Assembly (NCBI GenBank): GCA_049322315.1
Contig: JBMORF010000037.1
Span: 3,864 to 67,863 of the forward strand
Direction of reading: 5' to 3'
Length of the DNA stretch: 64,000 bases
Source of the DNA: Thermodesulfobacteriota bacterium
GTDB lineage: Bacteria > Desulfobacterota > Desulfobaccia > Desulfobaccales > 0-14-0-80-60-11
Below are positions 4,232 to 20,426 of the stretch, piece after piece (position 1 is the first letter of the stretch; the number at the start of each line of letters is the position of its first letter). The position numbers and the translations under genes are program-made. The notes beneath the pieces are model-generated. The model saw only the letters and a list, made by a program, of their open reading frames with translations. It did no database searches and was not told where the DNA came from.

Positions 4232-4594
4232 TTACCAGAGCCTGATAACCACCTTATCGCCCAGTTTTTCGCCTCTGACTTTTTCCATGTGCCGGAGCGC
4301 CGCGAATTCTCGTTCAAATTCCGGCATGGTCAGCTTTCCTCCGAGTTGCTGGAGAAGTTCCGCCGGTTCCAGGCTTCCCGTCTTTTTGAGGATCTTCAGG
4401 ATTTCGGTCTGGATCGGAGTGAGGATGGTAGGGGCGCCATGGCGCTCCGCCGAGGTGGCGCAATACACCGCCCAGGGATCACAAACCCTGACCCGGGAGA
4501 GATCTTCCAGGTAACAGTCCTCGCACAGTACCCGGCCATTATGGTTCTTTTCTTCTCCCGATTCGATCCTGGTTTGACATTTGTCGCATTGCAT
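4232..4594 (-). CDS. Small zinc-ribbon (CxxC...CxxC) plus winged-helix-like protein
   Basis: ORF 4232..4624. Likely start is MQCDKCQ. Motifs: CDKC...CEDC, then LTPIQTEILKILKKTGSLEPAELLQQLG. Confidence 0.5.
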   Translation of the reverse strand: MQCDKCQTRIESGEEKNHNGRVLCEDCYLEDLSRVRVCDPWAVYCATSAERHGAPTILTPIQTEILKILKKTGSLEPAELLQQLGGKLTMPEFEREFAALRHMEKVRGEKLGDKVVIRLW

Positions 4595-4697
4595 CTGATT
4601 TTCTCCCACTCGCGGTCCAGTCACACACCTGGCTTTGCCGGTGGCGGGCGAGATCGTCTAAAACCACCGGATCAAACAAGCCTACCTGGTTTCCGAC

Positions 4698-5234
4698 TTA
4701 TTGGGCTTTGAGCACCCCATTAACCATCTCGGCCACCTGGCGGAGATCCTCCTCGTTGGGCCTGCCGCTGATGTCCCCCAATCTCCCCATGGCATTGAAC
4801 CGCCGCAGTTTGCCATGGTATTCCCCCACCAGGTACCATTCCGCCAGCACCTGGAATCCCAGATGTTCCAACAATTGCCCCAGATATTTGCCGGTAGGAA
4901 CTGCCTCATTGACTCCGGTATGGCCGCCGCCATAAGTGCAGTAAACTATGGCGATCTTTCCGGGCCGTGGCGGGGCTCCGGCTTTGATCTCCTTGAGAGC
5001 CACATATTTCTGGCGCATTTTGCCAAAGAGAGTCCTCAAAGGTTTCCCGGGGAGCCATTCATAGACTCCCGAACCTACGAAAACCAGATCATAGCCCAGG
5101 AGATCGATATCCGTCCCCGCGGTAGCCCTAATGGTGTCCACCTGATGGCCGCAGGATGCCGCAGTCGCGGTGATCTGCTGGGCCACTTTCTTGGTGTTGC
5201 CGGTGGTGGAAAAATAGAGATTGAGTACTTGCAT
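4698..5234 (-). CDS. Flavodoxin-like protein (paralog 1)
   Basis: Inner start MQVLNLYFSTTGNTKKVAQQI is the flavodoxin FMN-binding signature. Collinear with and clearly similar to ORF 14445..14981. Confidence 0.85.
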   Translation of the reverse strand: MQVLNLYFSTTGNTKKVAQQITATAASCGHQVDTIRATAGTDIDLLGYDLVFVGSGVYEWLPGKPLRTLFGKMRQKYVALKEIKAGAPPRPGKIAIVYCTYGGGHTGVNEAVPTGKYLGQLLEHLGFQVLAEWYLVGEYHGKLRRFNAMGRLGDISGRPNEEDLRQVAEMVNGVLKAQ

Positions 5235-5248
5235 ATGGGCAGGTCTCC

Positions 5249-5428
5249 TTAGGGGTAATATTTTGGCCGCCTTGGCACCTCGGGCCAGGTTAGAGGACAT
5301 TCATTGATCTGTCTTCGCCGTTTATAGACAGCAGCGGCAAATGCCAAGCATGTCTGTTCGTTGCATTTTCTGCAATTAGATCTATCGAGCAACTTGGAAA
5401 TCTCCATTGGGTTTGTCGATTGGGTCAT
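5249..5428 (-). CDS. Small PF04060-type putative Fe-S cluster-binding protein
   Basis: LDRSNCRKCNEQTCLAFAAAVYKRRRQINECP matches the NC..C...C.AFA......CP pattern of the corrinoid-FeS/RACo N-terminal Fe-S domain. Confidence 0.6.
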   Translation of the reverse strand: MTQSTNPMEISKLLDRSNCRKCNEQTCLAFAAAVYKRRRQINECPLTWPEVPRRPKYYP

Positions 5429-5548: not shown

Positions 5549-6406
5549 CTAGCGCTGCCCGACCACGCAGATCGCCTTGGTAGGGATGTCGATACTGCCG
5601 TCGGTCCTGGCAAATTTTTGTGCCGCCTCCGCCAGCGCCTGCCAGTATGCAGCCTGTAGTGCGGCTGGTTGATCCGCGAGCAGACCGGCCAGAGGCGCAT
5701 TAACCTCCCCGAGAAATTGGGTGAGCGCTCCCACCGAAGCAAACTCCATCGAGCCTTCCAGAACCTTGGTTTGTATATTGCTGAAGCCAGCTTGAGTTAA
5801 GGCCTTCTCCAAAATGCCTTCTGCCAGGCTAAACACGGAAACTGTCCCTGCGGTCTTCGAGGATTGCTGAAACATTCTCTTAGCCAGATCGAATGCCAGA
5901 TTAAATATAGGCACCTTCCAGCTGGCATCCCAGACCGCGGAGGCGAACTTGCCGTTGGACACCAGCATTCTCAGTATCCTGGCTAAGGCGGCGTCAATAT
6001 CCGACAGGAACATGAGTGAGAAGCGGGCCAGGATAGCATCGAAGCAGCTTTCGGGAAAATTAAGGGCCTCTGCCGCCATTTCCCGAAACTCGAGGTTTTG
6101 CAATTCCAGGGCCGCGGCCCGCTTGCCGGCAATCGCCAGCATCTGCGGGGACAGGTCAGTGGCTATGACCTGTCCTTCAGGGCCTACTCTGAGGCTGGCG
6201 GTTAGCGCAGGCTCGCCGACGCCGGTCCCAATATCCAGTACCCGATAACCAGGGCGAATCTCCGCCAGGTCCACCAGGCAATCGCTGACCTGCTGCAGTC
6301 CCCGTTCCTGAATAGGCCACCATTTTTCCCAACCGGCCGCCAGACTGTCCCACAATTGCCGCTGCTTCTCACTATCATGGGAAGGATCGAGGGCTTGTTC
6401 CTGCAT
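5549..6406 (-). CDS. Class I SAM-dependent methyltransferase
   Basis: 285-aa ORF with motif I VLDIGTGVGEPA and a downstream acidic loop. Confidence 0.85.
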   Translation of the reverse strand: MQEQALDPSHDSEKQRQLWDSLAAGWEKWWPIQERGLQQVSDCLVDLAEIRPGYRVLDIGTGVGEPALTASLRVGPEGQVIATDLSPQMLAIAGKRAAALELQNLEFREMAAEALNFPESCFDAILARFSLMFLSDIDAALARILRMLVSNGKFASAVWDASWKVPIFNLAFDLAKRMFQQSSKTAGTVSVFSLAEGILEKALTQAGFSNIQTKVLEGSMEFASVGALTQFLGEVNAPLAGLLADQPAALQAAYWQALAEAAQKFARTDGSIDIPTKAICVVGQR

Positions 6407-6468: not shown

Positions 6469-6545
6469 GATACTGAGGATAATCCCAACACTTGGGAAAA
6501 GAATCCCCCATATGGGGGAGGAGGCACTTTTTTGAGGGGAAGGGA
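6469..6545 (-). repeat. About 77-bp repeat, copy B (A-tract, CCCCC-ATAT-GGGGG hairpin, T-tract, conserved box GGGATTATCCTCAGTATC)
   Basis: The reverse complement aligns along its whole length with 10441-10518 with few mismatches. It lies between the LuxR stop and the methyltransferase start. Confidence 0.7.
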
Positions 6546-6571
6546 ATATGCCGGGAGGAAAAATTAGCGGA

Positions 6572-7411
6572 TCAAATCAGCTGGTGGCGCAGGGCCTGGA
6601 CCGCAGCTTGGGTGCGGTCATTCACCCCTAATTTATTAAAGATATTGATTACATGACTTTTGACGGTGTGCGGACTGATCTTCAGGGAGCCGGAGATCTC
6701 CACGTTAGTGGCCCCTTGGACCAGCAAGCGCAAGACCTCCAGTTCCCGCGCGGTCAACGGCGCGGCCAGGTAATCATGGCCATCGGTCGCGGCTTTCCCG
6801 GGGCTGGGCGGTTCTGCCGGCCCAGGTTTCCCGCCGGCATGGGCAAGATCGAGATCAAGGGTCACCGTGGACACCAGGTTCCCCTCTTTATCTTGTATCG
6901 GGTAGACCGCCTGGGTCGATATGGGGCGGATAAATCCGGGGCAGCGCTCCGGGAGGGTTTTCTGTCCGCTCAAGGCCGCGGCAAAGGCCAGACAGGAAGG
7001 ATAGCCGCAGCTCCGGCAGTTGGTCTGGGGGAGCAGCCTGAAGATATCGAGCACCGGGACCGGGTTCCACTTCTTATAATTCGGCCTCAGACTACGCCGA
7101 CGTTGGCAGATATCATTGAGAAATTCTAACAACCGGTCCAAGAAATCCAGGGCTTGCTGACTGTCTGTAAATGAGGCCGCGACGCCTTGATCGGGATAGA
7201 GGCCGCAGCAGAACCTGTCCAGGGCAAACCGGATAAAGGGAGGTTTATCCAGAAGACGGGCCGATTTGACCACGGCATTAATATAGGGAAAGATTTGAGA
7301 AATATCGTCTTCCAGCCGGAAACAAGCAAACATCTGGGTATCGAACTCTGAACCGGTTCTAAAGGACGCCCCGTTTTTTTTTAGGGAAAAATCGCAATAT
7401 TTGACCAGCAT
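6572..7411 (-). CDS. LuxR/FixJ-type HTH regulator fused to an N-terminal PF04060-type Fe-S domain
   Basis: [32 protein letters not shown] (Fe-S motif) plus C-terminal [45 protein letters not shown] (LuxR HTH). Start taken at MLVKYCDF. Confidence 0.8.
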
Positions 7412-7513
7412 CAGTTTCACCGAGAGCAAGAGTTACTTGGCTAAATCTCGCCAAAGGTATGCCATCTGATTAAACGGCTAAAGACCCCATGGGTTTTAAT
7501 TTTCTCTTTCATT

Positions 7514-7978
7514 TCAAAGCCAGGGATAGCATTTTTCCCGATGCAAGGTCCAATTTTCCAATCCATATTTCCGAATTTTCCGCAGATTTTCTCGGGGAGC
7601 TTTTCCATGAAATGGTTCGAGAAAATTGAACTTGTGACAATCTGCCGCTTCGTCACATTGCCAACAGCCTGCGATGCCCTTTTTATGAACGCATGTTTTT
7701 ATCTCACAGGGCTTTCCACAGCCATCCCCCCCTTGGCGGCAAGGGGTGCCGCAGTACAACTCGCTCATTGCCTTCAGCCCCGCCGTTATCTTATGATAAT
7801 GAAGAAATTCCGGGACCATGGCGCCTTTCACGTGCGCATAATCTTCAAAATGCGATTTCTCTAATTCCTTAGAAAGTTCAGTGGCTAATTTGCTCACTTT
7901 GCTTTGGAATCGGAGACAATCGCCGCAATATAACCCACAATAAGCCGTCAATTCCTGGTCACTACCATACATAATCAT
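7514..7978 (-). CDS. DUF3795-like Cys-rich protein
   Basis: N-terminal YCGLYCGDC plus further Cys clusters (CGTPCRQGGDGCGKPCEIKTC, CWQC), as in DUF3795. Confidence 0.6.
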   Translation of the reverse strand: MIMYGSDQELTAYCGLYCGDCLRFQSKVSKLATELSKELEKSHFEDYAHVKGAMVPEFLHYHKITAGLKAMSELYCGTPCRQGGDGCGKPCEIKTCVHKKGIAGCWQCDEAADCHKFNFLEPFHGKAPRENLRKIRKYGLENWTLHREKCYPWL

Positions 7979-8579
7979 TTTATCAACTGTCCTTCTTGGA
8001 TATTTTTACAGATGATTGGGTAGAAAGTCAGGACTAGGCGAAGAGAAATGATCCTTTCCAACGCTACTAAGCCCTTAGGAAAATGCCGGCCGGCGCGATT
8101 TTGAAGGGATCTTCAGGATGCCCCAGACCGGATGCCCCAAGAATCCTTCGGCTGATCTAACCCCTGATAACCGTTGGCCATGGCTACTCATATTCTACCT
8201 CGATGCCGATGCGCTGGACCATCGGACCCCGGATGCGCTTGATCACGAAGGTGACGCTCAATCCCAGAAGCCAGACGTTGCCGCCCAAAGCCAGATTGAG
8301 AAAGGCCTGGGTGATATCAATGCACCCTTCCGGAAAAAAAGCCATGAAGTTGCGGTCCTTCCGGGCCGCTGTGCCTTCATGGCTTGGATTTACTTTATTG
8401 GGCTAGTTAGATCTTCAGGGAGTTCAATCTCCCTTAATGGCAAAATTATAGGTCTCCTCTATATCAAATGTCAACCAGAATCAAATTTCCAGCTTCCCTA
8501 TTGAAAACAATGACTTATCTGAAGATCAGTCGGTACACCGTCAACGTCTAGGTAATCAATATCTCCAAACAAATTGGTA

Positions 8580-10356
8580 CCTAAATTGAGCGATTTAAAA
8601 CTGTGTAGTGAAAATTCAGTACTTTGATGTATCCAACAAGATCATTTTTGGGTTGAAAGCCCTCGAAAATGCCCTTTTGAGGTTAAGACACAGTCGTTAG
8701 CGAATCACCAGGGAGACCCCCTGATGAAAATTGCCAAAATTTCCCAATGATCAACGCATACTTCAGCATTGGCTTTTGCCATGAGCACCGGACCCAGGAT
8801 AAAAATGCCCGGCTGGTTTAACTTCCCAAGGCCCTTAGGCCCAAGCAAACTGGGGCGGAGCGTTGCTCCGGGCCCACAAGGCGGCAAACTGCAGCTGCTC
8901 CATGGCAGAGGCGGCCACCTTAAGGATGATTTTGCCGGCATGCCGGACAACCTTGGCCGCCACGTCAATGAGCCGGCGCCGCAGGGTGGTGGCATAGGCC
9001 TCCACGGGAATCACTTCCCTGCAGACATCTTCCTTGAAGCACTCAAAGAGGAAAAAGGCCACCACCATAGTGTAATAGAGGGCCGCATTGGGCGAAAACC
9101 GCAGAAACGGCAGCTCTTCAAAGCCGAAGTCCTTCAAGCCGCGATGCACCAGTTCATCCGCCCCGCGACTATGGTAGCTGGCGATGATGCCCTCCGGTTC
9201 CAGATAATGCTCCCGTCCCGCCGCGTCCAGGCGTTGATCAATGGCCTGTCCCATCCCCAAGTTGGTATAGAAGATGGACAGCGGCCGCACATAATCCAGC
9301 AGCCGTTGCCGGCCTTCGGTCACCGGCCGGCACAGAAAGGCCCGGCGAAACGTCTGCCAAGTTCCCCGGCGGTCACCCAGTTCCAGGTAATCCCAGACCT
9401 GCTGCCGGTTCCGGTAGTGCTGCCACTGGCCGGTCTCCGCCTGCTCCGCCAGGGCCTTGAGTTCTTCATAGATGCGGCCGCCACAGATATAGCCGATCTG
9501 CAACTTTTCAAAGCCCTGAAACAGCTCCTGGTCAAAAAAACCGGCGTCCAGCCGCATGATGATGGGCACTGCCTCGCCGTAGTGTTTGCGGATGAACTTG
9601 ACGATATGCTCGACCATCTTGAGGGCGGTGTCCCCGTCGTTGCTGTGTTTGCTGCCGCCCCGGAAAACGGCGTCGATAATCAGGCCTTCCCAGGTCAACT
9701 GCAGGGGTTGAAAGCCCTTCACCTTTTTATACGTAGGCTCCACCCCATGGCGCTTTCGGGCCTCATCATTATCCATCACCATGGTGTCCATGCCCAGGAC
9801 CACCTCTTTGGGCTGCCGAATTTTGAGCCGCCACAAGAACAGATGCTGCAGCAAGTAACGAAACAACCAGATGCGGACCCAGGAGAAGGCGCCAAAAAAT
9901 CTTTTCACGGCATGAGAAGAGAGCATGTGTTCAGGGGCCGTCTCAATGGCGGCCGCATAGCCCTCGTCTTTTTTCAGGGCATCAAAGTAGACCAGATGAC
10001 GGCTGGTGCCATCCAACAAAAAGCAGAACACCTGCTTGAAGATCTCGGAAACCGGCTGCCCCTTGGCGTTTTTGCGTATGGAGCCGAACAAACGTTCCAA
10101 GACCGGATAAATGGCTATGTTGCGCAGATACCTCACAAAGAGTGTCAGCCCGCCTCTGGAGGTCAAGGTGTCAGAGGTTGCTTCAACCCCATCAATAACG
10201 TGGGCATTTTTATTTCTACCAATCATGGTAACGCTTGTGACAACCTCTCACCTATTGGGTGTGCCTGAGCAAAAAGAGTATGTTAATATACTCTATAATA
10301 TCAATAGGTTATCGTATTATCGTGTAATGTGCAAGTAATAAATCGCTCACTTTAGG
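8580..10356 (-). mobile_element. IS1380-family insertion sequence with 18-bp imperfect terminal inverted repeats and a 5-bp target-site duplication
   Basis: Left end 8580-8597 is CCTAAATTGAGCGATTTA. The reverse complement of 10339-10356 is CCTAAAGTGAGCGATTTA (17/18). Flanking TGGTA at 8575-8579 and 10357-10361. One transposase ORF inside. Confidence 0.85.
8835..10226 (-). CDS. IS1380-family DDE transposase
   Basis: 463-aa ORF. N-terminal TLTSRGGLTLFVRYL and overall layout are typical of IS1380 transposases. The 499-aa antisense ORF is a shadow. Confidence 0.85.
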   Translation of the reverse strand: MIGRNKNAHVIDGVEATSDTLTSRGGLTLFVRYLRNIAIYPVLERLFGSIRKNAKGQPVSEIFKQVFCFLLDGTSRHLVYFDALKKDEGYAAAIETAPEHMLSSHAVKRFFGAFSWVRIWLFRYLLQHLFLWRLKIRQPKEVVLGMDTMVMDNDEARKRHGVEPTYKKVKGFQPLQLTWEGLIIDAVFRGGSKHSNDGDTALKMVEHIVKFIRKHYGEAVPIIMRLDAGFFDQELFQGFEKLQIGYICGGRIYEELKALAEQAETGQWQHYRNRQQVWDYLELGDRRGTWQTFRRAFLCRPVTEGRQRLLDYVRPLSIFYTNLGMGQAIDQRLDAAGREHYLEPEGIIASYHSRGADELVHRGLKDFGFEELPFLRFSPNAALYYTMVVAFFLFECFKEDVCREVIPVEAYATTLRRRLIDVAAKVVRHAGKIILKVAASAMEQLQFAALWARSNAPPQFAWA

Positions 10357-10440
10357 TGGTAGTTAATGACCGCACCCGGGCCGCGGTTCGGGCTCTGCGC
10401 CATAAGATGATCTAATCTCCTGATATGTCCTACTGGCATT

Positions 10441-10518
10441 TCCCTGCGCCCCAAAAAAAAGAGGCCCTCCCCCAAATGGGGGGTTCTTTTTTCAAGTATT
10501 GAGATTATCCTCAGTATC
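10441..10518 (+). repeat. About 77-bp repeat, copy C (A-tract, CCCCC-AAAT-GGGGG hairpin, T-tract, conserved box GAGATTATCCTCAGTATC)
   Basis: Inverted copy of 6469-6545. It has the same orientation relative to its downstream gene (the TonB receptor). Confidence 0.7.
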
Positions 10519-10656
10519 TACTCAGCTAAGGAGGCTATTAAGGATGTAATGCGACAGATGCCAAAAAGTAATCGAATCGGGAGAAGAAAAGACCGTCAAT
10601 AAGGGGATGAACCCCTTACCGCTGCGGTAGGATCGAAATAGCCACTAAGAAATTAA

Positions 10657-10703
10657 GCCACGAAGGCGACCCACCTGCGGTGGGGTCTCTGTGGCTTTTT
10701 TTT
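10657..10703 (+). terminator. Intrinsic terminator/attenuator in the leader of the TonB-receptor operon
   Basis: GCCAC-GAAGGC-GACCCACC-TGCG-GGTGGGGTC-TCT-GTGGC followed by TTTTTTTT. About 175 nt upstream of ATG 10878. Confidence 0.6.
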
Positions 10704-10877
10704 GCGGATCTAAAGCGTAGTTGGCGAGAAGAGAGGCCGACTCCCTCTGCCAGGAAGAAAGCCGCCCTCTCCAGGACCGGATCGTCAGGACAACCACGGC
10801 CCCGCCTCCTTTTCTACCAGAGGTGGGGCTGATTGTCAAAGATTGAGCCTTGCCCCTGACAGGAAAGGAGAAAACAG

Positions 10878-13067
10878 ATGTGTGGAAAAACGTGTTTAAG
10901 GTATCTTGTCCTCTTTGGTTTATGTTTCGCTCTCCAGACCGGGATGGCCTCCGGCGAGAACCTGGTCGCGGAAGGGCTGCCCCCGGAGCAGACGGAAGGT
11001 ACAAAAACGGAAGGCGCCAAAGAAGAAAAAGCGGATAAGAAAGCGGAAAAGGTAGAGCAGATACCGGAGATCGAAGTGAAGGCCTTTGCCGAAAAAGCGG
11101 CCACCAGCACGGTGGTCACCAAAGAGGACATCAGCCTCGGGCCTTATCAGAACATTCCGGGTTATCTGGAAGAGCAGTCTGGTCTGGACATGACGCGCCG
11201 GTCCCTACTAGGAGTGAAGTCCAGTCAGATGCGGTTGCGGGGCTTCGATGAATCCCGCTACCAAATCTATCTCAACGGCCGCACATGGAAGGGCGCCGGC
11301 GTGAAAGGCGGCTATTTCGTGGATTGGACCACCATCACCCCCGACGACCTGGAACGCCTGGAAATCATCCGCGGTCCCTTATCAGCGGAATACGGCAACA
11401 CCTTGGGTGGGGTGATTGTTATTAACACCCAACAGGGAAGCAAGGAGCCTAAGCTTTCTGCTGACACCTATTGGGGCAGTTGGGAGACGCAAAACTACCG
11501 GTTGCTGCACACGGGGGGCTTTGGGCCGGTGCAGTATGCCGTGAGCGGCAATTTCGCCAATAGCGAAGGGTACCTTCGGAATAATTTTGTGCATAATCGC
11601 GGCAATTTTAACGCCACTCTCACTTACACCGCCCCTTGGGGTACCAGCCTCACCGGCGCGTATCGCTATATCACCCAGGACACTGGCATGATTGTCTATA
11701 ACCGCCCGGGCTCCCCCTTTTATAACCCCAGTGAGCCCATCAGTGACGCCGACCCCCTCTATGGCCCGGCCATTAACTTTATCGGCGGCACCACCGGTGG
11801 CGTCAATGGGTTGACCTTCGGCAACAAGAGCCATGTCTTAAACCAGCGTTATGAGCTGGATTTGGAAGCCAAGCAAAAATTCTTATACGGGGAGGCGCAA
11901 GCCCACCTCTTCTACTTCCAGGCGGTTCGGGAGGAATGGTTTTATGCAATGAATAACCCGAACCTGCTGATTGCCAATCGGGGGGTCTGGGACGAGGACA
12001 CCTGGGGCTGGAACTTCAAGGTGCGCCAGAACCCTGGGCCGGTGCGCCTGGGCTTCGGTCTGGAAGGGAATTATTTGGGTTTCGGCCCGATCTCTTATAA
12101 TTATCTCGATCCCAACTATGTGAGAAAGCCTTTCCCTTCCAACATCTACGGGATAAAAAACGCTCAAAAGATCCACGGCGGTTTCGTCGATGCGGCCCTG
12201 CCCTTTGCAAAACACTTCGAACTCTATTTGGGCTTGCGTTATGACAACTATGACGCCGCAAAGCCCATCAACTTCAACCAGGGCCTCAGGGCCGATGCCC
12301 TCAGCCCCAAAAGCACCCTGACCATCCGGCCCACCGAAACCACCACCTTCTATCTCTCGGCCAACTACAACACCCGCTTCCCCACCCTGCCGGAATATTA
12401 CTGGTTCGCCGCCGGTTACCAACCCTCAGGCCGGACTGCCAATTCCGTCCTGCTTCCGGAGTTCGGCATGCAGTACGAGGCTGGAGTCACCCAAAAGCTT
12501 CCCCTGAATTCCCTCCTGCGGGTGCGGGGCTATTATTACGACATTAATGATTATATCCGGAGAGTTACTGGCTTTAGTCGTGGCGGGGTAGTTTACAACA
12601 TTAACCTGGCCACTTTCCGGGGCCTGGAGGTGGAGGGCGAAATCGGTTTGCCCTATAACCTGGCCGCTTTTGCCAATTATACCTGGCAACAGACCAGCAC
12701 CAGTCCGGACCCCTTGAACGGGGATGTCCGTGATCTCCCCGAACTGCCCGAACACAAAGCCAATATTGGCTTGAAATATAAATCGCCCAACGGCGCCGAG
12801 GGTAGGGTTTACGTTCGCCTGGTCTCCCAACGGGCCACTCCCCAGGTCACAGTGACTAATAATCAGGTGACTGGGTTATTGCTCCGGCCTATGAACGGCT
12901 TTTGCACGGTTAATCTGGAAGGCCGCTATCCCGTGGCCAACTTCGATATGATGAAAGGCTATCTCTATTTCGGCGTGGAAAACTTGTTCAGTGAGCAATA
13001 TCAAGAGGACGCTGGCTATCCCATGGCCACCGCTACTTTATACGGCGGGGTGCAACTGCGCTATTAA
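10878..13067 (+). CDS. TonB-dependent outer-membrane receptor
   Basis: 729 aa. Signal peptide. Plug motifs (RGFDESRYQIYLNG, LERLEIIRGPLSAEYGNTLGGVIVINT). Long beta-barrel with terminal aromatic residue (GVQLRY). RBS AAAGGAGAAAACAG precedes the ATG. Confidence 0.9.
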   Translation: MCGKTCLRYLVLFGLCFALQTGMASGENLVAEGLPPEQTEGTKTEGAKEEKADKKAEKVEQIPEIEVKAFAEKAATSTVVTKEDISLGPYQNIPGYLEEQSGLDMTRRSLLGVKSSQMRLRGFDESRYQIYLNGRTWKGAGVKGGYFVDWTTITPDDLERLEIIRGPLSAEYGNTLGGVIVINTQQGSKEPKLSADTYWGSWETQNYRLLHTGGFGPVQYAVSGNFANSEGYLRNNFVHNRGNFNATLTYTAPWGTSLTGAYRYITQDTGMIVYNRPGSPFYNPSEPISDADPLYGPAINFIGGTTGGVNGLTFGNKSHVLNQRYELDLEAKQKFLYGEAQAHLFYFQAVREEWFYAMNNPNLLIANRGVWDEDTWGWNFKVRQNPGPVRLGFGLEGNYLGFGPISYNYLDPNYVRKPFPSNIYGIKNAQKIHGGFVDAALPFAKHFELYLGLRYDNYDAAKPINFNQGLRADALSPKSTLTIRPTETTTFYLSANYNTRFPTLPEYYWFAAGYQPSGRTANSVLLPEFGMQYEAGVTQKLPLNSLLRVRGYYYDINDYIRRVTGFSRGGVVYNINLATFRGLEVEGEIGLPYNLAAFANYTWQQTSTSPDPLNGDVRDLPELPEHKANIGLKYKSPNGAEGRVYVRLVSQRATPQVTVTNNQVTGLLLRPMNGFCTVNLEGRYPVANFDMMKGYLYFGVENLFSEQYQEDAGYPMATATLYGGVQLRY

Positions 13068-13118
13068 ATTCGGTCATCATCTACTAACGTTTAATCCGAA
13101 TTCAAGAAAGGATTGGAA

Positions 13119-14057
13119 ATGATCAAGTCAAGAATGGTATGGCTGGTCCTGGTAATGGGTTTAACCTTCATCTTCGGTATGGCTCCTGGCGTCGACGCAC
13201 AGCCGCATCACGGAAAGTTTTATCTCGTCGGCACCGGTCCGGCAGGGCCGGAATACGCCACCTTAAAGGCCATTAAGACCATCAAGAAAGCTGACCTGGT
13301 TCTTTGCGATAAGCGCATGGAGGAGATGTTCCAGACCTATTTGAAGGGGAAAAAGGTGGAGGACCCCTGGAAGGAACTATGGCACCACCAGGGAAAGATG
13401 TGGATAGAAGTCTTGCCCCGCCTTCAGCCGGAGGAAGGACGTGCCCTGGTGAAGGAAAAGATGCGGCAACGGGATAAGTTTGTCCAGAGGATCAAGGGCC
13501 TTCTGGCCCAGGGGAAGAAGGTGGTCCTCCTGGACGGTGGAGATCCCACCATCTACAGCCGGTCTTACTGGCTCCTGGAAGGACTGGATGATGATCAGGT
13601 GGAGATTGTCCCCGGGGTAGGGGCCTTGTCCGCCTCCATGGCCGCGCTGAAACGGCACAGCACCAGCAGCGGCACCCGCTTCCTGGCCCAGACCTCAGGA
13701 TACTCTTTCTTCGGTAAAACCGATCGAGATGACTTAGCCCGGGATCTTTCCCACCTGCCCGGCACCTTGGTGGTTTACATGGGTCTCAGGGATGCGAAAA
13801 AATTGGTTAAATCATTAAAAAAATTTAATCCTGGGGACCTACCTGTGGCGGTGGTTTATTTTGCCGGCTATCGGGATAAGGAAAAGATAGTCAAGGGAAA
13901 TTTAAACAATATCCTAGAAAAAATCGACCCGGAAAAAGAGAAATTCATGGGTCTGATTATTGTGGGCCGATGTCTGGATGGCCCTCGTTTTCCCATGCAG
14001 GAGCTGAACCAGCTGATTCAGCCAACCCGGGCAGAGCCCGTCAAGGACCGACAATAA
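13119..14057 (+). CDS. Tetrapyrrole (corrin/porphyrin) methylase-fold protein with an N-terminal Sec-type signal peptide
   Basis: MIKSRMVWLVLVMGLTFIFGMAPGVDA-Q, then YLVGTGPAGPEYATLKA, VVLLDGGDPTIYS and IVPGVGALSASMAAL (TP_methylase, PF00590-like motifs). Follows the receptor by about 50 nt. Confidence 0.75.
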   Translation: MIKSRMVWLVLVMGLTFIFGMAPGVDAQPHHGKFYLVGTGPAGPEYATLKAIKTIKKADLVLCDKRMEEMFQTYLKGKKVEDPWKELWHHQGKMWIEVLPRLQPEEGRALVKEKMRQRDKFVQRIKGLLAQGKKVVLLDGGDPTIYSRSYWLLEGLDDDQVEIVPGVGALSASMAALKRHSTSSGTRFLAQTSGYSFFGKTDRDDLARDLSHLPGTLVVYMGLRDAKKLVKSLKKFNPGDLPVAVVYFAGYRDKEKIVKGNLNNILEKIDPEKEKFMGLIIVGRCLDGPRFPMQELNQLIQPTRAEPVKDRQ

Positions 14058-14444
14058 AAAGACACCCTGAAGGTCTGAAAGACTTTTATGGAGAAAAGAA
14101 TGCTGAAGAAATTGTTCTCGTTTTTTGCAGTGGTCATGCCCCTTTTTTGTACCGTTCCCCGGGCTGAGGCCTATGTCCCTTGGTCCCCTTGTGGGCAGGA
14201 GCAACCCCTAGGTGTGAGAGCCCCTCCAGCAGCCGGTCCGGATTTCCACATATTTGCCGGCATATGCGAAGCTGCCGAAAACTGAGCAACCCATAAAAAA
14301 AGGAGCCCCACCGTTTTGAGGAGATCGGCATTGCTGAAGGCGTCGTGGTAAGCCTCCTTCAGATTCACCAAAGGGCAACAGGCCTGGGACCAAAACCATC
14401 TGGCACCGCTCTTTCTTTTCCATGAAGCCTCCTTCGAGCCGCCA

Positions 14445-14981
14445 TTAAACTCGCAGGATACCGGTCACCTTTTCGGCAATCTCCTGCAAATCATGGTCGT
14501 TGGGCCGCCCCTGAATGTTCCCCAGGCGACCAGTGGCGGAAAGATGTTGGAGATTGCCGCCCAGGAATTCACCGGGCACATACCATTCATCGATGATTTC
14601 ATAACCGAGATGGTCAAAGAGTTGTCCCATATACTTAACCGCAGGCACAGCTTCATTGGCGCCCGTATGGCCACCGCCAAAGGTGCAATAGATCACGGCC
14701 TTTTTCCCCGGACGCCGGGGCGCGGCTGGTTTAATTTCACCGTCGCGGGCGTATTTTTCCCGCAGCTTGCTGATGAGCTCCAGCATGGGCTTCCCCGGCA
14801 GCCAGGAATAGACTCCCGAGCCCATAAAAATCAGATCATGCGCGAGGATATCCGGTTCCACCTTTTTGGTAACTTGCACCGTTTCCACTTCATGATCGAG
14901 TTGCAGCAAGGTTTTTTCAATCTGTGCCGCCACCTTCCGGGTGTTCCCCGTAGCCGAAAAATAGAGATGCAGAATTTTCAT
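14445..14981 (-). CDS. Flavodoxin-like protein (paralog 2)
   Basis: MKILHLYFSATGNTRKVAAQI... Collinear with the 4698..5234 product. Confidence 0.85.
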   Translation of the reverse strand: MKILHLYFSATGNTRKVAAQIEKTLLQLDHEVETVQVTKKVEPDILAHDLIFMGSGVYSWLPGKPMLELISKLREKYARDGEIKPAAPRRPGKKAVIYCTFGGGHTGANEAVPAVKYMGQLFDHLGYEIIDEWYVPGEFLGGNLQHLSATGRLGNIQGRPNDHDLQEIAEKVTGILRV

Positions 14982-15075
14982 GAGCCCCTCACACCTTGAA
15001 AAGTTTGTTGAGTAGCCAGGGGCCTCCTCGGCCTCTGAACTGAGATAGAGGGTAGGCTGCCGGCAGAAAAAGGAG

Positions 15076-15091
15076 TATGATTTGCATCATA
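15076..15091. promoter_or_regulatory. Candidate CRP/FNR-type box TATGAT-TTGC-ATCATA
   Basis: Perfect 6+4+6 palindrome containing the TGAT-N4-ATCA core. It lies in the divergent region between flavodoxin 2 and the Crp/Fnr gene. Confidence 0.4.
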
Positions 15092-15125
15092 CGCAGGCAT
15101 TTTTTTTCAAAGGAGAACGAATACT

Positions 15126-15782
15126 TTGGGGGTGGCAGGGATATTGGAGGCAATCTTTGCCCAGCTGGCACCGGAGCATCGCCAGAAACTAACAGAAATC
15201 TCCTTGGAAGTTTCCCTGGAAAAAGGGGCGCAGCTTTTTGCCCCAGGAGATCCTGTCCGGGGATTTTATATTGTCCGTGAAGGGGGCATCCGGATTTACG
15301 GGATGTCTTCCCAGGGCAAAGAGATCACCCAGGGGATCGCCGGTCCGCTAAGTGCCTTCGCCCTGGCCAGTCCCTTTTCCGAGACCTATCAAAACTTCGC
15401 CGCGGCCCTGAAAGATAGTCGGCTCTATCTCGTCAAAAAAAAGGAATTTTTGGACTTGGTAGCTGATGATCCCGGCTTCGCAAGCGCCTGGATATGCCTG
15501 CTTTCCAAGATGGTTATGCATCTGCACCGGCGCTTGGTCGATCTGACTCTCAAAAACCCCAAAGCAAGAATTGCCAGCTACCTCTTGCTCCTGGCCGAAT
15601 TGCAAAATTCTCAATCCTTCCCGCTCCCAGTGCCACGCAAAGAGTTGGCAACCTTCCTGGGCATGACCCACGAGACTTTCTACCGGAGCGCCAAGGAATT
15701 GAAAAATGAAGGTCTGCTCCGGTTTACTGGCCAAAAGGTCGATATCCTTGATCTGGATTTACTGGTGGAAATAACCGAATAA
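15126..15782 (+). CDS. Crp/Fnr-family transcriptional regulator
   Basis: cNMP-binding-like N-terminal half and C-terminal HTH RKELATFLGMTHETFYRSAKELKNEGLL. Non-ATG start (TTG/GTG at 15126-15134). Confidence 0.85.
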   Translation: MGVAGILEAIFAQLAPEHRQKLTEISLEVSLEKGAQLFAPGDPVRGFYIVREGGIRIYGMSSQGKEITQGIAGPLSAFALASPFSETYQNFAAALKDSRLYLVKKKEFLDLVADDPGFASAWICLLSKMVMHLHRRLVDLTLKNPKARIASYLLLLAELQNSQSFPLPVPRKELATFLGMTHETFYRSAKELKNEGLLRFTGQKVDILDLDLLVEITE

Positions 15783-16502: not shown

Positions 16503-19500
16503 ATGAAAGCTGGTAATGGCATCAACTGCAGCACCATACCCTTAACCGGGGTCAAACTCTCCTCGCGTAGCTTTGATCCGGACTATCCTTATGGCCTTCT
16601 CCTTGTTCAACTCCGGCCTAAATTCGCTGAAGGAGTTAGAGGGTGCCCCATTAGGCAAAAAATTTCCTCCGATTACCATGAAAAGATTTTCGAGATACTA
16701 AGTTTTGCCATTGAGCGTAAGGTGCATTTCTGTGTATTGCCGGAATACGCTATACCGATCGCTTGGGTCAATGAAATACTGAGAATAGTGGCTGCTAATG
16801 CCCCCCCAAACAGTGTTTTCATTCTGCCCCTGGAACATCTTGAGGGTGAGCATCTACCATGGCTCTTAGAGGAGGCTGGAGTAGCACCGGAGTTCCAAAT
16901 ATCCTACCAGAAAGAACTGACCCAAAGCTCAGGGAAGAGGGTGCTAAACTTATGTTGGATTTTGGCCAAAGGTGAGATGGGCGAACTCCACTCTCATTTT
17001 CAAGCGAAGTTTTATCCCGCGGAAATTGAAGAACCTCCCCACTTATATCCTCACCGTTTTCAAGGTGGACGAGCCTTGCGAATATTCAAAACCGACGATG
17101 AATCACCCCGCACTTTTGTAATTTTTATTTGCTTCGACTTTATAGGCCAGGAACCTGGTTCCAGCAATCTTTTAACAGTCCTCCAGAACCACATGATGCG
17201 GGAGCAGCGACAAGTTGACTGGTTGCTGGTCCCTCAGTGTAATCCCAGACCGATTCATTCAAAATTTCTGCAAGCTCTTGACCTCTTTTATCAGAATCAA
17301 TTGTTAGATGACCCTTCACACAAAAAGGGCGCTACCGCAATATTTTGGATCAATACTTCCGGTGGGTTCTCTAACCCTCTTGCAACCGTTGGCTCTTTTG
17401 GGGGATCGGCGCTTGTGGGGCGATTTCGATCTTATGAAACAGAACTTACCACCTCCTTCCCTTGTCCCGCTAAATTAGGAATCTACCGTCGAATGGTCAT
17501 TAAAATCGAAGAAGAAGTGGCCTTTCTGTATGCTGACAAGCCATTGTCTGAAAAAAGCAGAATGGACATCACGGGTCGGAAAGGGTTTTTGCTGGAATTT
17601 TACCATTGGTCCCCTTCTACCAAATGGACTCTAATTAATGATCCCAATAATCCTCCCTGGAACCCTGGTTTTTTCCGGTCACATTTCAAACTTCTTGAGT
17701 CGCTGGCTCGATGGCATGGCAAGGAGCAAGACCGCAAGGTAAGCGGAGATTTACCACAGATTTCTGATTATATTCCCCTAAGAATAGAACTGGAACAACG
17801 GGACTTCCAAACACAGGAACAACGGGACTTCCAAGCATTGTATCCAGAAAAGCTTTTGAGTAAGTGTTTAGAGCCTGGCTGGGCAAAGGGTAGATGGTGG
17901 GGGACTTTTGACACAGATTATTTTCTAAGAAGCCGCGGTAAATTTTTACTTGTTGGAGAGGTAGGAACAGGAAAAACAACCATGCTTCATTGGCTTGCAT
18001 CTAAAATCGCAATTGACATGCAACGTCTCCCTTTTTACCTAAATTTGCGGGACATTAGAGGCATTGTTACTTATGATAAACTCTCCCGTGCCTTTTCCAA
18101 TTATGCCAAACCTCATATACCAAGAATTGCGAAAGGCCACTTCGATCAACTCTTGGACCAAGGTCGTTTAGTTTTTCTTTTTGATGGGTTAGACCAGGTT
18201 TCGATCGAGGATTACGGAACCCTTGTGCGACAATTGCTTCTTCTTGTCAAGGGTAATGAGCTGATCCTTGCCACAAGGCCAACTCCCGCCCGATACCTTG
18301 AGGACATCCGCGACCTGAACGTCCTGAGGCTGAAACCCTTCGACGAGGATGATAGAAAAGCTTACTTCGGCGATAGCCTGTATGAAAGAGCAATTGAATA
18401 CTGTGCTATGGCCCCGGAACTGACCAAAGTTCCCATATTAGCTTATATGGTTAAGCGGCTTCTTATTGCTGGTGATTCTCCAACCCAAGGGAAACGGTCA
18501 GGCCTCTATGCATCTTTTATCAACCATATATTATTCACACAACATAGTTCTTTAATTTCCCAGGCAAACCGTGTGCATCGTACATTGAAAGCACTGGCAT
18601 TTTGGTCCCTGGCTGCCGTTGATCCACAGTTTGGCTTTGCTGACTATGATGTTTTTGACCAGCATAACGAAGGACGCGTGAACGAACGGAAACTCTTAGA
18701 CTTCGGACTAGTTAATTCTCTATTGGAACGGGGACAAGGGTCCAGACCCCAATTGTTCTTTACTCACCAATCATTTCAGGAGTTCCTTGCAGCCCAATAT
18801 GCTTTAGAGAATAAAACTGCGAAAGCTTTGGTATTGAAGGAAATGTGGCGCTACAAGTGGCAGGAAGTCATAAAGTTCATGGTAGGATTGGATGAGAAAG
18901 GAGAAATTTTAAGTACAATATACAAAGGATCGGAAAAAGATAACGTAATCCATGGGTATCTGTTTTTAGCGGCTAAATACTTTCCAGAAGCCGCATTCTA
19001 TGACAAAACCATGGCGGCTTCTATCGAGGATGCTCTTACTTCTTTGAGCTTGACAGAGCCCTTTCAAGGTGAAGCCCTCCAGGCTCTTGCCCTGCTAGGG
19101 ACATCATCATCTCTGGGTCGAATCATCGACCTTATGGAAACCTCGGAGATACTCTCCAAGAAGGCGTTATTTTCCCTTGAAGAAGGTTTGCGGCACTTAC
19201 CTGATCAGTTTATTCTTGATAAGCTTATCACCATTGTAGCTAAATTTCTCACTGATGAGGAAAATTGGATACGTGCAGTCGCCATTAGAGTCTTATCGAA
19301 CCTTGGGAAACATCAGCTTATTGAGCCCATAATCTATATTGGCAAAAATATTTTTGATAAGCACCCACTTGTACACCAGGAAGCCATTAAGGCTTTGCGG
19401 TATCTGGGAAAACATCTTTCGCCTGAGGTTATCCTGGGGGTGGCACAACGTCTCTCCGAGGCAAGGCCAGAGTTACGCTGGGCTACCCTTCACTTGTTAA

Positions 19501-20426
19501 GGGCGCAGGGGGAAGACCCTCCTCCTAAGAAATCCATACGATTCATCAATTGGAATATAGAAGGGCATCGAGTTCTCATTGACGCCCTTGTTAATCCAGA
19601 GAACCTTTACCCTGATCTAATCCCCGAAGTGGCTCAATGGGTTGCCGAGACGGACCAACTTGATCGTAAATTTTTTGTTGACGATCTAATTACGTTGGGG
19701 GAAATACCTTACGAACTAATCCCTCGGGTGGATCAATGGCTTTCTGATTTAGACCCTCAGGAGCATTTCTCTTTGCTTGGGGTTCTTCCATCTAATAAAT
19801 GCGTGGATGGAGATATGGCGGTCCAAAAGGAATATCGTCCTGCCATTTACGCTCTAAAGCCTCTTTTTGAGGAGCCTTCTCCATTGACAGACCTCCCGAA
19901 TGAGCTCATTCCTGAGGTGACTAACTGGTTCTGTGATCCAGACCATGGGGTGCGCTTAGTCGCAGTTTGTGCCCTGAAAGCCTTTCCAGAGATTCTTCCG
20001 CCTGGGCTCATTCCCAAAGTGGCCAAGTGTCTTGCCGATGATTACCCAGATGTGCGTTGGGAGGCCCTCTATAGTATTTGGTGGAGGGAAACACATTTGT
20101 GGCAGGATATGCTTATCGAACTCATTCCCGAAGTAGCTGAGTGTCTTAACGATGAAGTCCCAATGGTGCGTCAACATGCTATTCAAGCTCTAAGTACCTT
20201 TGAGGGGACTTTTCCGCCTGGGCTCATTCCCAAAGTGGCCAAGTGTCTTGCCGATGAAGACGAAGGTGTGCGTCGGGAGGCTTTTAATATCTTGAGAGAG
20301 CTAAGTCGGTCGCATGAAGAAGTTTGGCAACTTAAGCCATCCAAAGAAACCGCTTCAAGGGAAAAAATATTTAGCAAGAATTCTCAGCCATCAGAATCAG
20401 ATAACGGAGATGAACCTCCTTTTTAA
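16503..20426 (+). CDS. CN-hydrolase (nitrilase superfamily)-like + NACHT-type STAND NTPase + HEAT-repeat protein, 1307 aa
   Basis: CN-hydrolase order of motifs: FCVLPEY (E81), FQAKFYPAEIEE (K169), FVIFICFDF (C210). NACHT: LLVGEVGTGKTT, LVFLFDGLDQV, ILATRP, FTHQSFQEFLAAQYA. C-terminal HEAT-like repeats such as LIPKVAKCLADDYPDVRWEAL. Only plus-strand gene in the area. AT-richer by eye. Confidence 0.8.
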   Translation: MKAGNGINCSTIPLTGVKLSSRSFDPDYPYGLLLVQLRPKFAEGVRGCPIRQKISSDYHEKIFEILSFAIERKVHFCVLPEYAIPIAWVNEILRIVAANAPPNSVFILPLEHLEGEHLPWLLEEAGVAPEFQISYQKELTQSSGKRVLNLCWILAKGEMGELHSHFQAKFYPAEIEEPPHLYPHRFQGGRALRIFKTDDESPRTFVIFICFDFIGQEPGSSNLLTVLQNHMMREQRQVDWLLVPQCNPRPIHSKFLQALDLFYQNQLLDDPSHKKGATAIFWINTSGGFSNPLATVGSFGGSALVGRFRSYETELTTSFPCPAKLGIYRRMVIKIEEEVAFLYADKPLSEKSRMDITGRKGFLLEFYHWSPSTKWTLINDPNNPPWNPGFFRSHFKLLESLARWHGKEQDRKVSGDLPQISDYIPLRIELEQRDFQTQEQRDFQALYPEKLLSKCLEPGWAKGRWWGTFDTDYFLRSRGKFLLVGEVGTGKTTMLHWLASKIAIDMQRLPFYLNLRDIRGIVTYDKLSRAFSNYAKPHIPRIAKGHFDQLLDQGRLVFLFDGLDQVSIEDYGTLVRQLLLLVKGNELILATRPTPARYLEDIRDLNVLRLKPFDEDDRKAYFGDSLYERAIEYCAMAPELTKVPILAYMVKRLLIAGDSPTQGKRSGLYASFINHILFTQHSSLISQANRVHRTLKALAFWSLAAVDPQFGFADYDVFDQHNEGRVNERKLLDFGLVNSLLERGQGSRPQLFFTHQSFQEFLAAQYALENKTAKALVLKEMWRYKWQEVIKFMVGLDEKGEILSTIYKGSEKDNVIHGYLFLAAKYFPEAAFYDKTMAASIEDALTSLSLTEPFQGEALQALALLGTSSSLGRIIDLMETSEILSKKALFSLEEGLRHLPDQFILDKLITIVAKFLTDEENWIRAVAIRVLSNLGKHQLIEPIIYIGKNIFDKHPLVHQEAIKALRYLGKHLSPEVILGVAQRLSEARPELRWATLHLLRAQGEDPPPKKSIRFINWNIEGHRVLIDALVNPENLYPDLIPEVAQWVAETDQLDRKFFVDDLITLGEIPYELIPRVDQWLSDLDPQEHFSLLGVLPSNKCVDGDMAVQKEYRPAIYALKPLFEEPSPLTDLPNELIPEVTNWFCDPDHGVRLVAVCALKAFPEILPPGLIPKVAKCLADDYPDVRWEALYSIWWRETHLWQDMLIELIPEVAECLNDEVPMVRQHAIQALSTFEGTFPPGLIPKVAKCLADEDEGVRREAFNILRELSRSHEEVWQLKPSKETASREKIFSKNSQPSESDNGDEPPF

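Follow-up and report, generated by a model that had tools for sequence, protein, structure and literature searches.

A predicted exported methylase-fold protein paired with TonB-dependent receptors in a putative nickel/cobalt uptake module of Thermodesulfobacteriota

In the current study, we characterized a gene pair of a Thermodesulfobacteriota bacterium in which an outer-membrane TonB-dependent receptor (TBDR) is followed by a protein with the fold of vitamin-B12 methylating enzymes and a Sec-type signal peptide (TPM). The pair recurs among sulfate-reducer relatives within what looks like a nickel/cobalt uptake regulon, behind a conserved leader RNA that ends in a terminator and has not been catalogued previously. 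The locus was examined within a stretch of 64,000 nucleotides, hereafter the window, and its features are collected in Table 1. The original prediction described a TBDR gene co-transcribed with an exported tetrapyrrole-methylase-fold protein behind a long, structured, terminator-bearing leader, and this observation was confirmed, with co-transcription remaining plausible and export predicted from sequence. Its interpretation, namely that the protein is a methylase fold repurposed for periplasmic corrinoid or porphyrin binding or shuttling under riboswitch- or attenuation-type control, was only partly supported. Predicted export as a family trait, the partnership with TBDRs rather than a role as a cob/cbi biosynthetic enzyme, and a leader consistent with attenuation-type control all found support, whereas the corrinoid/porphyrin shuttle did not.

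Table 1. Positions of the features of the TBDR-TPM locus and its surroundings in the window.
Positions	Strand	Feature	Details
10332-10518		Repeat element	Inverted copy at 6469-6655; together with the DDE transposase gene at 8835-10226 (-) it marks the rearranged DNA that replaced the leader's promoter
10543-10592	+	Fragment of the 5' end of a CxxC zinc-ribbon gene	Has an in-frame stop; intact paralog at 4232-4624 (-); occupies the place where orthologous leaders have their TTGACA/-10 promoter
10597-10706	+	Conserved leader RNA motif (model R1)	P1 hairpin at 10600-10618, variable A-rich linker, long terminator hairpin at 10655-10697 with invariant 5' arm GCCACGAAGGC, U-run to 10703
10743-10877	+	Second conserved leader module	A hairpin; CCUCCUUUUCU stretch (10805-10815) complementary to the Shine-Dalgarno region GGAAAGGAGAAAA (10862-10874); predicted SD-sequestering helix
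10878-13067	+	TBDR, 729 aa	Cys/Sec-free sister group of the PCPU-type selenocysteine receptors; reads RFPTLPEYYWF where those read RLPCPUDYYWW
13119-14057	+	TPM, predicted exported TP_methylase-fold protein, 312 aa	Signal peptide encoded by 13119-13199; closest to CbiF/CobM; family-specific helical insertion (DPWKELW...GK.W)
14100-14285	+	Remnant of the DUF4198 gene that follows TPM in orthologs	About 36 homologous codons (signal peptide plus first residues); N-terminal His of the mature protein replaced by Tyr; sequence after that unrelated
8330-8437	-	Second copy of the R1 motif in the window	Intact TTGACA promoter; upstream of DUF3795, a LuxR/Fe-S regulator, a SAM methyltransferase, a zinc-ribbon gene and flavodoxin (7978 down to 4698)

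The receptor has a plug domain (PF07715, 2.6e-16), a barrel domain (PF00593, 3e-28) and the signal-peptide N-terminus MCGKTCLRYLVLFGLCFALQTGMA. TPM starts at an ATG preceded by the RBS AAGAAAGGA and matches PF00590 (TP_methylase, the class III SAM-methyltransferase fold) over residues 35-266 with 132.7 bits (2.3e-38) against a gathering score of 27.8. The motifs GTGPAGPEY, LDGGDPTIYS and VPGVGA predicted for it are all present, as is AGYRD, and the G, P and D residues of the SAM-pocket motifs are invariant across 21-33 members and align to CbiF, although this is motif-level evidence only. The N-terminus MIKSRMVWLVLVMGLTFIFGMAPGVDA|Q has n-, h- and c-regions with an AXA site. Of 121 homologs, 114 have a 12-residue window with a mean Kyte-Doolittle hydropathy of at least 1.8 within their first ~40 residues (the window starting within the first 30), and 115 have at least one Lys/Arg before it, with the methylase domain starting at a median residue of 33. 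The exceptions look like truncated gene calls. The gap between the TBDR and TPM is 51 nt and contains no terminator-like site, so that co-transcription is plausible but not shown.

TPM is distinct from the biosynthetic methylases whose fold it shares. The best sequence matches to solved structures were CbiF/CobM (4e16, 1.6e-23; 1cbf, 1.5e-21), yet TPM scored far below every NCBIfam equivalog cut-off for the B12 and siroheme methylases (CbiF/CobM, CobA/CysG, CobI/CbiL), with best scores of 92 against 198 (PRK06136) and 84.9 against 259.65 (TIGR01465). In contrast to CbiF/CobM and the SUMT domain of CysG/CobA/NirE, it has a cleavable-looking signal peptide and an extra helical insertion with conserved Trp residues, and it is encoded next to outer-membrane receptors rather than in cob/cbi/siroheme operons; a separate cbi methylase cluster lies on another contig of this genome. 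An AF2 model of TPM was mediocre (pLDDT 73.5), with poor domain packing against PDB chains.

The pairing with TBDRs is conserved. All four TPM paralogs in this genome, and 30 of 34 loci in named genomes, lie beside TBDRs, many of which contain selenocysteine, and the named-genome loci often carry divergent nikM-L-Q-O-DUF4198 or ExbBD-TonB genes. The usual order is TBDR-TPM-DUF4198-APC permease, and in 25 loci the recurrent order was TBDR-TPM-(nucleoside hydrolase/FmdE)-DUF4198-APC. Fusion proteins also exist, one type being DUF4198-TPM and another signal peptide-Oxidored_molyb-TPM followed by an APC permease. DUF4198 is a family that binds Ni or Zn in the periplasm (PMC12537917, PMC12663993), and the members in these clusters keep the N-terminal His and the GWGH His.

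The terminator reported upstream of the receptor gene is real (fold z-score -3.05) and is conserved across genera far beyond chance. It belongs to a ~108-nt leader motif consisting of a covarying 5' hairpin (P1), a variable linker and a terminator whose invariant 5' arm reads GCCAYGAAGGC, for which we built a covariance model (R1) from a 12-sequence alignment. All four P1 pairs covary, and one P2 pair switches from C-G to U-A in 11 sequences. The model gave 9 hits in this genome and hits in 58 of 61 genomes of the order, and 38 of 47 copies have TTGACA at a fixed distance upstream. A search of Rfam 15 gave no match at E<=1. The second leader module downstream of R1 is shared with three other loci: the closest-ortholog locus (L038), a locus of another related genome (L040), and a paralogous operon of this genome (C33).

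The genes behind R1 form a coherent set. In this genome, R1 lies upstream of CbiM/NikM, NikL (NF058648, 171.6 bits against 100), CbiQ and an ABC ATPase, that is, a nikMLQO-type operon, and in Desulfobacca acetoxidans it lies upstream of CooT. The regulon also includes an outer-membrane barrel, DUF4198, a TBDR with a NikA-like binding protein, ExbBD-TonB and further TBDR-TPM modules. No NikR_C was found in this 99.99%-complete genome, and its single CbiM/NikM gene is under R1 rather than a cobalamin riboswitch.

Taken together, we favor, with moderate confidence, the view that the window holds an eroded copy of a conserved extracytoplasmic uptake module of Thermodesulfobacteriota, the core of which is the receptor plus the Sec-exported TP_methylase-fold protein, followed in intact copies by DUF4198 and an APC-family inner-membrane permease. 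In this view, transcription normally starts at a sigma-70-type promoter and first makes the leader, and read-through of its terminator under the control of some effector would decide whether the operon is expressed. Since the same leader heads the nikMLQO-type ECF transporter, TonB-ExbBD, other receptor modules and a CooT gene, the module most likely serves nickel (possibly cobalt) acquisition in sulfidic habitats. TPM is inferred to bind or process an organic ligand in the periplasm, such as the receptor's cargo chelate or a SAM-like molecule, with DUF4198 taking the metal and the APC permease the small organic part. Our analysis establishes the fold, the conserved signal peptide, the gene linkage and fusions, the conservation and covariation of the leader, and the composition of the regulon, whereas the periplasmic location of TPM, its ligand and any binding or catalysis, the identity of the metal and nickel-dependent expression or transport, attenuation, and every hand-off step are inferences from sequence alone. 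The metal in particular is inferred from the neighbors; flavodoxin, flavin reductase and TonB systems would also fit iron limitation, and NikKMLQO-type systems serve cobalt in some bacteria (PMC2667541). The linker and P1 showed no excess complementarity to the terminator arms compared with shuffles, and no conserved alternative (antiterminator) pairing was found, so that an RNA-only switch is not shown.

Corrinoid or metallo-tetrapyrrole salvage, in which the receptor would import a corrinoid, F430-like or porphyrinoid molecule and TPM would be its periplasmic binding or shuttle protein, appears unlikely. It draws on the similarity of TPM to cobalt-precorrin-4 methylases and the SUMT domain of CysG, which bind metallated tetrapyrroles, on the signal-peptide-bearing CbiK that the same genome encodes behind a cobalamin riboswitch, right next to one R1-controlled module, and on the presence in some operons of a flavin reductase of the CobR/ferric reductase family (PF01613). 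However, the riboswitch check that had been proposed beforehand gave no RF00174 hit at E<=1 in 9800-15200, and neither RF00174 nor any other Rfam riboswitch was found upstream of about 25 related cassettes, although this genome has six cobalamin riboswitches elsewhere. The receptor's BtuB equivalog score was 61 against a cut-off of 836, no BtuFCD-like genes were recognized among the ORFs surveyed around the loci, and the inner-membrane partner is an APC permease, which is unsuited to molecules of about 1 kDa. In addition to the genome having its own cbi methylases, the helical insertion of TPM, with three conserved Trp, remodels the substrate side of the cleft. The recurrent partners point instead to uptake of nickel/cobalt ions or small chelates. 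A genuine periplasmic SAM-using enzyme, such as a methyltransferase modifying the imported cargo or a metal(loid), is likewise improbable but cannot be excluded, since TPM has no invariant His or Cys and the family keeps the SAM-pocket motifs GxGP(G/A)(D/G)P, GGDP, PGVGA and AGYPD (the ATWPD equivalent), with some members retaining the canonical GPGDP. Some loci add an exported nucleoside hydrolase-FmdE fusion that could remove an adenosyl product, and an amino-acid-type permease is a constant neighbor. On the other hand, no source of SAM is known in the periplasm, no methyl acceptor is evident, and the nucleoside hydrolase occurred in only 4 of 25 loci in our first survey.

It is also possible, although doubtful, that the leader is a free-standing small RNA gene of ~105 nt or only a protein-bound operator region rather than a cis-acting attenuator, with the operons having their own promoters. 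The element's own strong promoter and terminator, the lack of a conserved antiterminator pairing, and the about 175 conserved nt between terminator and start codon in the window, L038 and C33 would fit this idea. Against it, the element is always co-oriented with, and directly upstream of, a coherent set of uptake operons, and in several loci only about 15-65 nt separate the U-run from the start codon, which leaves no room for another promoter. Finally, the window copy itself could tentatively be regarded as a non-functional relic of rearrangement next to an IS element, whatever the family does elsewhere. Its leader promoter has been replaced by a gene fragment and a repeat beside a transposase gene, the truncated DUF4198 has lost its metal-binding His, and the APC gene is absent, whereas same-genus genomes carry the intact R1-TBDR-TPM-DUF4198-APC operon; the copy may therefore be poorly expressed or decaying. 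Nevertheless, both the TBDR and TPM reading frames are intact and full length, 63-75% and 77% identical to orthologs, the leader, the second leader module and the RBS are conserved, and paralogous DUF4198 and APC genes exist in trans.

How anaerobes obtain nickel and cobalt across the outer membrane in sulfidic environments, and how they regulate this uptake when they lack NikR, is poorly understood. The locus leads to a widespread, unannotated gene module, to a coherent regulon marked by a leader RNA that is absent from Rfam and is a testable candidate for a new riboregulator of metal uptake, and to a first functional context for the recently predicted selenocysteine TonB receptors. An exported class III methyltransferase fold would also be a clear case of an enzyme fold recruited to transport. 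Desulfobacca acetoxidans, a cultured organism in which these predictions are open to bench testing, has seven leader copies and at least four TPM genes. More speculatively, and on present evidence improbably, R1 could be a new class of Ni2+/Co2+-responsive OFF-switch whose sensing nucleotides lie inside the terminator hairpin and which would replace NikR across a whole order of sulfate-reducer relatives. Within the same reading, TPM could be the first extracytoplasmic member of its fold, using its SAM-type pocket to bind or process an amino-acid/nucleoside-like nickel chelate delivered by (seleno)cysteine-bearing TonB receptors and passing the metal to DUF4198 and the organic part to an APC permease.

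Several known systems resemble parts of the module. The best NCBIfam hits of the window receptor are the selenocysteine-containing TBDRs (NF049944-NF049947; PMC12013277), and the paralogous partners of TPM include true PCPU-type members, one scoring 1128 bits. The window receptor itself, however, scored 207.5 against 700 and 172.8 against 800 (NF049946/NF049947), with TLPE and no Cys or Sec at the motif, and a link of these receptors to TPM, DUF4198 and APC is not mentioned in the papers we consulted. DUF4198 proteins such as Zcp of Neisseria gonorrhoeae (PMC12663993) and the Ni-binding IsDUF4198 (PMC12537917), and NikKMLQO nickel transporters (PMC2667541), share TonB receptors and nik-type ECF transporters as genomic partners, but are described with NikR or Zur control and without any TP_methylase-fold or APC partner, whereas an RNA leader is shared here. 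As in transcription-terminating riboswitches and attenuators, in particular terminator-embedded aptamers such as the HMP-PP (thiS) riboswitch, and the NiCo (czcD) riboswitch, R1 is a short 5' leader with conserved nucleotides inside an intrinsic terminator, placed before transporter operons, and its genes are metal-related; NiCo switches, however, turn on efflux genes, whereas R1 precedes uptake genes. The original prediction also cited the periplasmic CbiK(P) of Desulfovibrio as a loose precedent. That of D. vulgaris is a B12-pathway enzyme fold exported to the periplasm of a sulfate reducer, although the fold is that of a chelatase rather than a methylase. The analogy proved apt in one respect, since this genome also encodes a signal-peptide-bearing CbiK (P0124), whose gene sits behind a cobalamin riboswitch, unlike the TPM genes under R1, and lies right next to one R1-controlled module.

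In the current study, we characterized the cassette formed by the TonB-dependent receptor (TBDR) gene and the adjacent gene for a TP_methylase-fold protein, here called TPM. The receptor matches the Plug model at 2.6e-16 and the barrel model at 3e-28 and carries an N-terminal signal sequence. It is followed, after a gap of 51 nt in which no terminator-like site was found, by TPM, whose ATG is preceded by the RBS AAGAAAGGA. TPM matches PF00590 TP_methylase at 2.3e-38, but falls far below every NCBIfam equivalog cut-off for CobA/CysG, CbiF/CobM, CbiL, CbiH and CbiE. The closest solved sequences are precorrin-4 methylases (4e16, 1cbf), followed by CysG and NirE. The three methylase motifs named in the original prediction (GTGPAGPEY, LDGGDPTIYS and VPGVGA) are present, and the observation on which that prediction rested was confirmed. 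The cassette is flanked upstream by a transposase gene and downstream by a flavodoxin gene and a Crp/Fnr gene. An AF2 model of TPM built from a 21-row alignment reached a pLDDT of only 73.5, and Foldseek confirmed the fold family, although with poor superposition (TM 0.3-0.5).

Coordinates of the cassette, its leader and related features in the window and in other loci
Sequence	Coordinates	Strand	Feature
Window	10878-13067	+	TBDR, 729 aa
Window	13119-14057	+	TPM, 312 aa
Window	10655-10703		Terminator hairpin plus U-run of the leader
Window	10543-10592		Stop-containing fragment of a zinc-ribbon gene
Window	10332-10518		Repeat, one member of a 187-nt inverted repeat pair
Window	6469-6655		Other member of the inverted repeat pair
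Window	8835-10226	-	DDE transposase gene (DDE_Tnp_1_4)
Window	14100-14207		First ~36 codons of a DUF4198 gene
Window	14445-14981	-	Flavodoxin gene downstream of the cassette
Window	8330-8437	-	Second, better-preserved copy of the R1 leader motif, with a perfect TTGACA promoter
Window	7514-7978	-	DUF3795, downstream of the second leader copy
Window	6572-7429	-	LuxR/Fe-S protein, downstream of the second leader copy
Window	5549-6406	-	SAM methyltransferase, downstream of the second leader copy
Window	4698-5300	-	Flavodoxin, downstream of the second leader copy
Window	4232-4624		Zinc-ribbon ORF, downstream of the second leader copy
Window	16503-20426	+	1307-aa ORF with NACHT NTPase and HEAT repeats (STAND-type protein), unrelated to the cassette
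L006 (same genome, contig C33)	9745-11853	-	Selenocysteine TBDR with an in-frame TGA in RLPCPUDYFWWARC
L069 (same genome, contig C63)	9034-10208	+	Cobalamin riboswitch followed by a CbiK cobaltochelatase homolog (P0124)
L032	475-2247		Signal peptide-Oxidored_molyb-TPM fusion
L053	8053-9876		Tandem TPM protein
L054	3492-5171		Tandem TPM protein
L106 (Desulfobacca acetoxidans)	1040-1402	+	CooT (nickel chaperone of CO dehydrogenase) gene
L046 (a related genome)	11901-11966	+	Type II hammerhead ribozyme (74.7 bits), a few kb from the TPM gene of that genome

The predicted signal peptide of TPM is a family trait. The N-terminus has a basic n-region, a hydrophobic core and an AXA site, with predicted cleavage between MIKSRMVWLVLVMGLTFIFGMAPGVDA and QPHH, and it lacks a twin-arginine motif. 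All 21 aligned homologs show the same layout, with the methylase domain beginning about 33 residues in. Among 121 homologs, 114 have a 12-residue window of mean hydropathy of at least 1.8 near the N-terminus and 115 have at least one Lys/Arg before it, whereas the rest look like truncated gene calls. The genome has ten PF00590 genes, of which four are of this predicted exported type, four form a cbi cluster on contig C68, one encodes a 504-aa protein on contig C37, and one lies on contig C60. TPM is therefore not part of the biosynthetic set.

The pairing of TPM with receptors is conserved and extends to a larger module. All four predicted exported paralogs in this genome lie beside TBDR genes. 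On contig C33, two of them flank a receptor with an in-frame TGA in the motif RLPCPUDYFWW, which is a true PCPU-type selenocysteine receptor (NF049947, 1128 bits) and is followed by a predicted exported nucleoside hydrolase-FmdE fusion, DUF4198 and an APC permease. The receptor of the window is a Cys/Sec-free relative that reads RFPTLPEYYWF at that position. When 25 loci from this genome, 20 genomes of the phylum and D. acetoxidans were surveyed, the recurrent neighbors were TBDR, DUF4198 (PF10670), an APC-family permease, a small CarboxypepD_reg-like protein and, in a few loci, a predicted exported nucleoside hydrolase-FmdE fusion. The usual order is TBDR-TPM-(hydrolase)-DUF4198-APC. In named genomes, including Desulfobacca, Desulfosarcina variabilis, Desulfotignum, Desulfobacula, Desulfohalobiaceae and others, 30 of 34 loci repeat this pattern, and many also have divergent nikM-L-Q-O-DUF4198 or exbBD-tonB genes. 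Several fusion proteins were also found, namely DUF4198-TPM (protein P0132), signal peptide-Oxidored_molyb-TPM followed directly by an APC permease (locus L032), and tandem double and triple TPM proteins (proteins P0128 and P0219, loci L053 and L054). DUF4198 proteins are periplasmic metal binders, with Zn bound by Zcp (PMC12663993) and Ni bound at a Kd of 18 nM by IsDUF4198 (PMC12537917), and the cluster members keep the N-terminal His of the mature protein and the GWGH histidine. A complex prediction for TPM with its cognate DUF4198, run on the pair from the closest-ortholog locus (L038), returned a score of 0.00, which is not evidence either way.

Another feature of the cassette is its leader, which ends in a strong terminator and is one copy of a conserved element. 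The window's 10600-10890 aligns at 75% identity with the upstream region of the paralogous C33 operon, although the two receptors share only about 25% of their residues, and the first 108 nt recur upstream of cassettes in other genera. The element consists of a P1 hairpin (GGGG-AUUGAA-CCCC), an A-rich variable linker, typically of about 31-40 nt, a long hairpin whose 5' arm GCCAYGAAGGC is invariant, and a U-run. A covariance model of the element (R1) found nine copies in this genome, copies in 58 of 61 genomes of the order (1-7 per genome), and weaker copies in 13 of about 146 other genomes of the phylum, where the three loci that were checked (one from this family and two from other families) again preceded regulon genes. 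In 57 distinct copies, all four P1 pairs covary and one P2 pair switches from C-G to U-A eleven times. Of 47 copies, 38 have TTGACA (at most one mismatch) about 40 nt upstream of P1, followed by a TAnAAT-like -10, and on this sequence evidence the RNA therefore starts just before P1. In several loci only about 15-65 nt separate the U-run from the start codon, so that expression then has to pass through the terminator. No Rfam family matches the element. The window, L038, L040 (a locus of another related genome) and C33 share a second module of about 135 nt, in which CCUCCUUUUCU can pair with the Shine-Dalgarno region.

In this genome, the R1 element precedes nikM-nikL-nikQ-nikO (NikL NF058648, 171.6 bits); an outer-membrane barrel followed by DUF4198; exbB-exbD-tonB-FmdE; tonB-TBDR-TPM-DUF4198-TBDR-TBDR-DUF4198; a methyltransferase, a TBDR, a NikA-like binding protein and DUF3842; the C33 module; the window cassette; and, on the minus strand of the window, the operon of DUF3795, a LuxR/Fe-S regulator, a methyltransferase and flavodoxin. 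D. acetoxidans has seven copies, four of which precede TBDR-TPM modules, while the others precede tonB-cooT-methyltransferase-?-TBDR (locus L106), the nik operon and exbBD-tonB. Twenty further copies from other genera mostly precede barrel-nikM(L)QO-DUF4198. No NikR_C domain was found in the genome, and its only CbiM/NikM gene is under R1, while six cobalamin riboswitches serve other genes. One cobalamin riboswitch on contig C63 is followed by a CbiK homolog with a clear signal peptide and lies directly upstream of an R1 leader, an outer-membrane barrel and DUF4198. The genome thus appears to export a second B12-pathway fold.

The interpretation first offered for the cassette was that TPM is a periplasmic corrinoid or porphyrin binding or shuttle protein under riboswitch- or attenuation-type control, and our data support it in part. 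It is right about export, insofar as this can be inferred from sequence, about the linkage to receptors, and about a leader consistent with attenuation-type control, but it is probably wrong about corrinoids. A permissive Rfam scan of 9800-15200 and scans of 24 related loci at the gathering thresholds found no riboswitch for the cassettes, and two cobalamin riboswitches nearby belong to other genes on the other strand. How termination might be relieved could involve a terminator-embedded aptamer, an RNA-binding protein or something else. When the duplex energies of the linker or P1 against the terminator arms were compared with those of shuffled sequences in 57 leaders, no signal was found, and no conserved alternative pairing was detected. 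We also considered that the P1 hairpin might be a NikR-type DNA operator, but this was rejected because the genome has no NikR_C and because the stem covaries. NikK/NikL-type components are classed as nickel-related, with some cobalt exceptions (PMC2667541), and nickel is therefore the best guess for the metal, although cobalt or iron remain possible, given the flavodoxin and flavin reductase in the regulon. Literature searches for an exported or periplasmic tetrapyrrole methylase and for the motif names of the selenocysteine receptors gave nothing relevant. A search on nickel, riboswitches and TonB led to papers on nickel transporters but to none describing a riboswitch for nickel uptake, and no description of the predicted exported TPM family, its module or the R1 leader turned up in the literature searched or in Rfam.

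With regard to what TPM may do, the protein keeps the SAM-pocket motifs, and across 33 diverse members it has no invariant His or Cys. It has invariant or near-invariant Trp, Lys, Glu and Asp residues, and a helical insertion (DPWKELW...GK.W) on the substrate side of the cleft. Together, these features suggest an organic ligand rather than direct metal binding. The constant APC permease partner suggests that a small amino-acid-like molecule crosses the inner membrane. In our working model, the receptor would bring in a metal chelate, TPM would bind or process the organic part, DUF4198 would take the metal for NikMLQO, and the APC permease would import the organic part. While the gene linkage, the fusions, the conserved signal-peptide-like N-terminus and the conservation of the leader are direct observations, export itself and every step of this model are inferences.

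The copy of the module in the window is eroded. Its homology to orthologous leaders starts at about 10600, and upstream of that point lie the zinc-ribbon gene fragment, a repeat and the transposase gene, with the usual promoter missing. The two members of the inverted repeat pair are 72-79% identical and bracket the transposase gene and the second leader copy, while the operon that this copy precedes lies mostly outside the pair. This probably reflects a rearrangement that removed the promoter of the TBDR-TPM leader. Downstream, the DUF4198 remnant has the N-terminal His changed to Tyr, and there is no APC gene. In contrast, two same-genus genomes carry the intact R1-TBDR-TPM-DUF4198-APC operon. 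The TBDR and TPM frames are nevertheless intact in the window.
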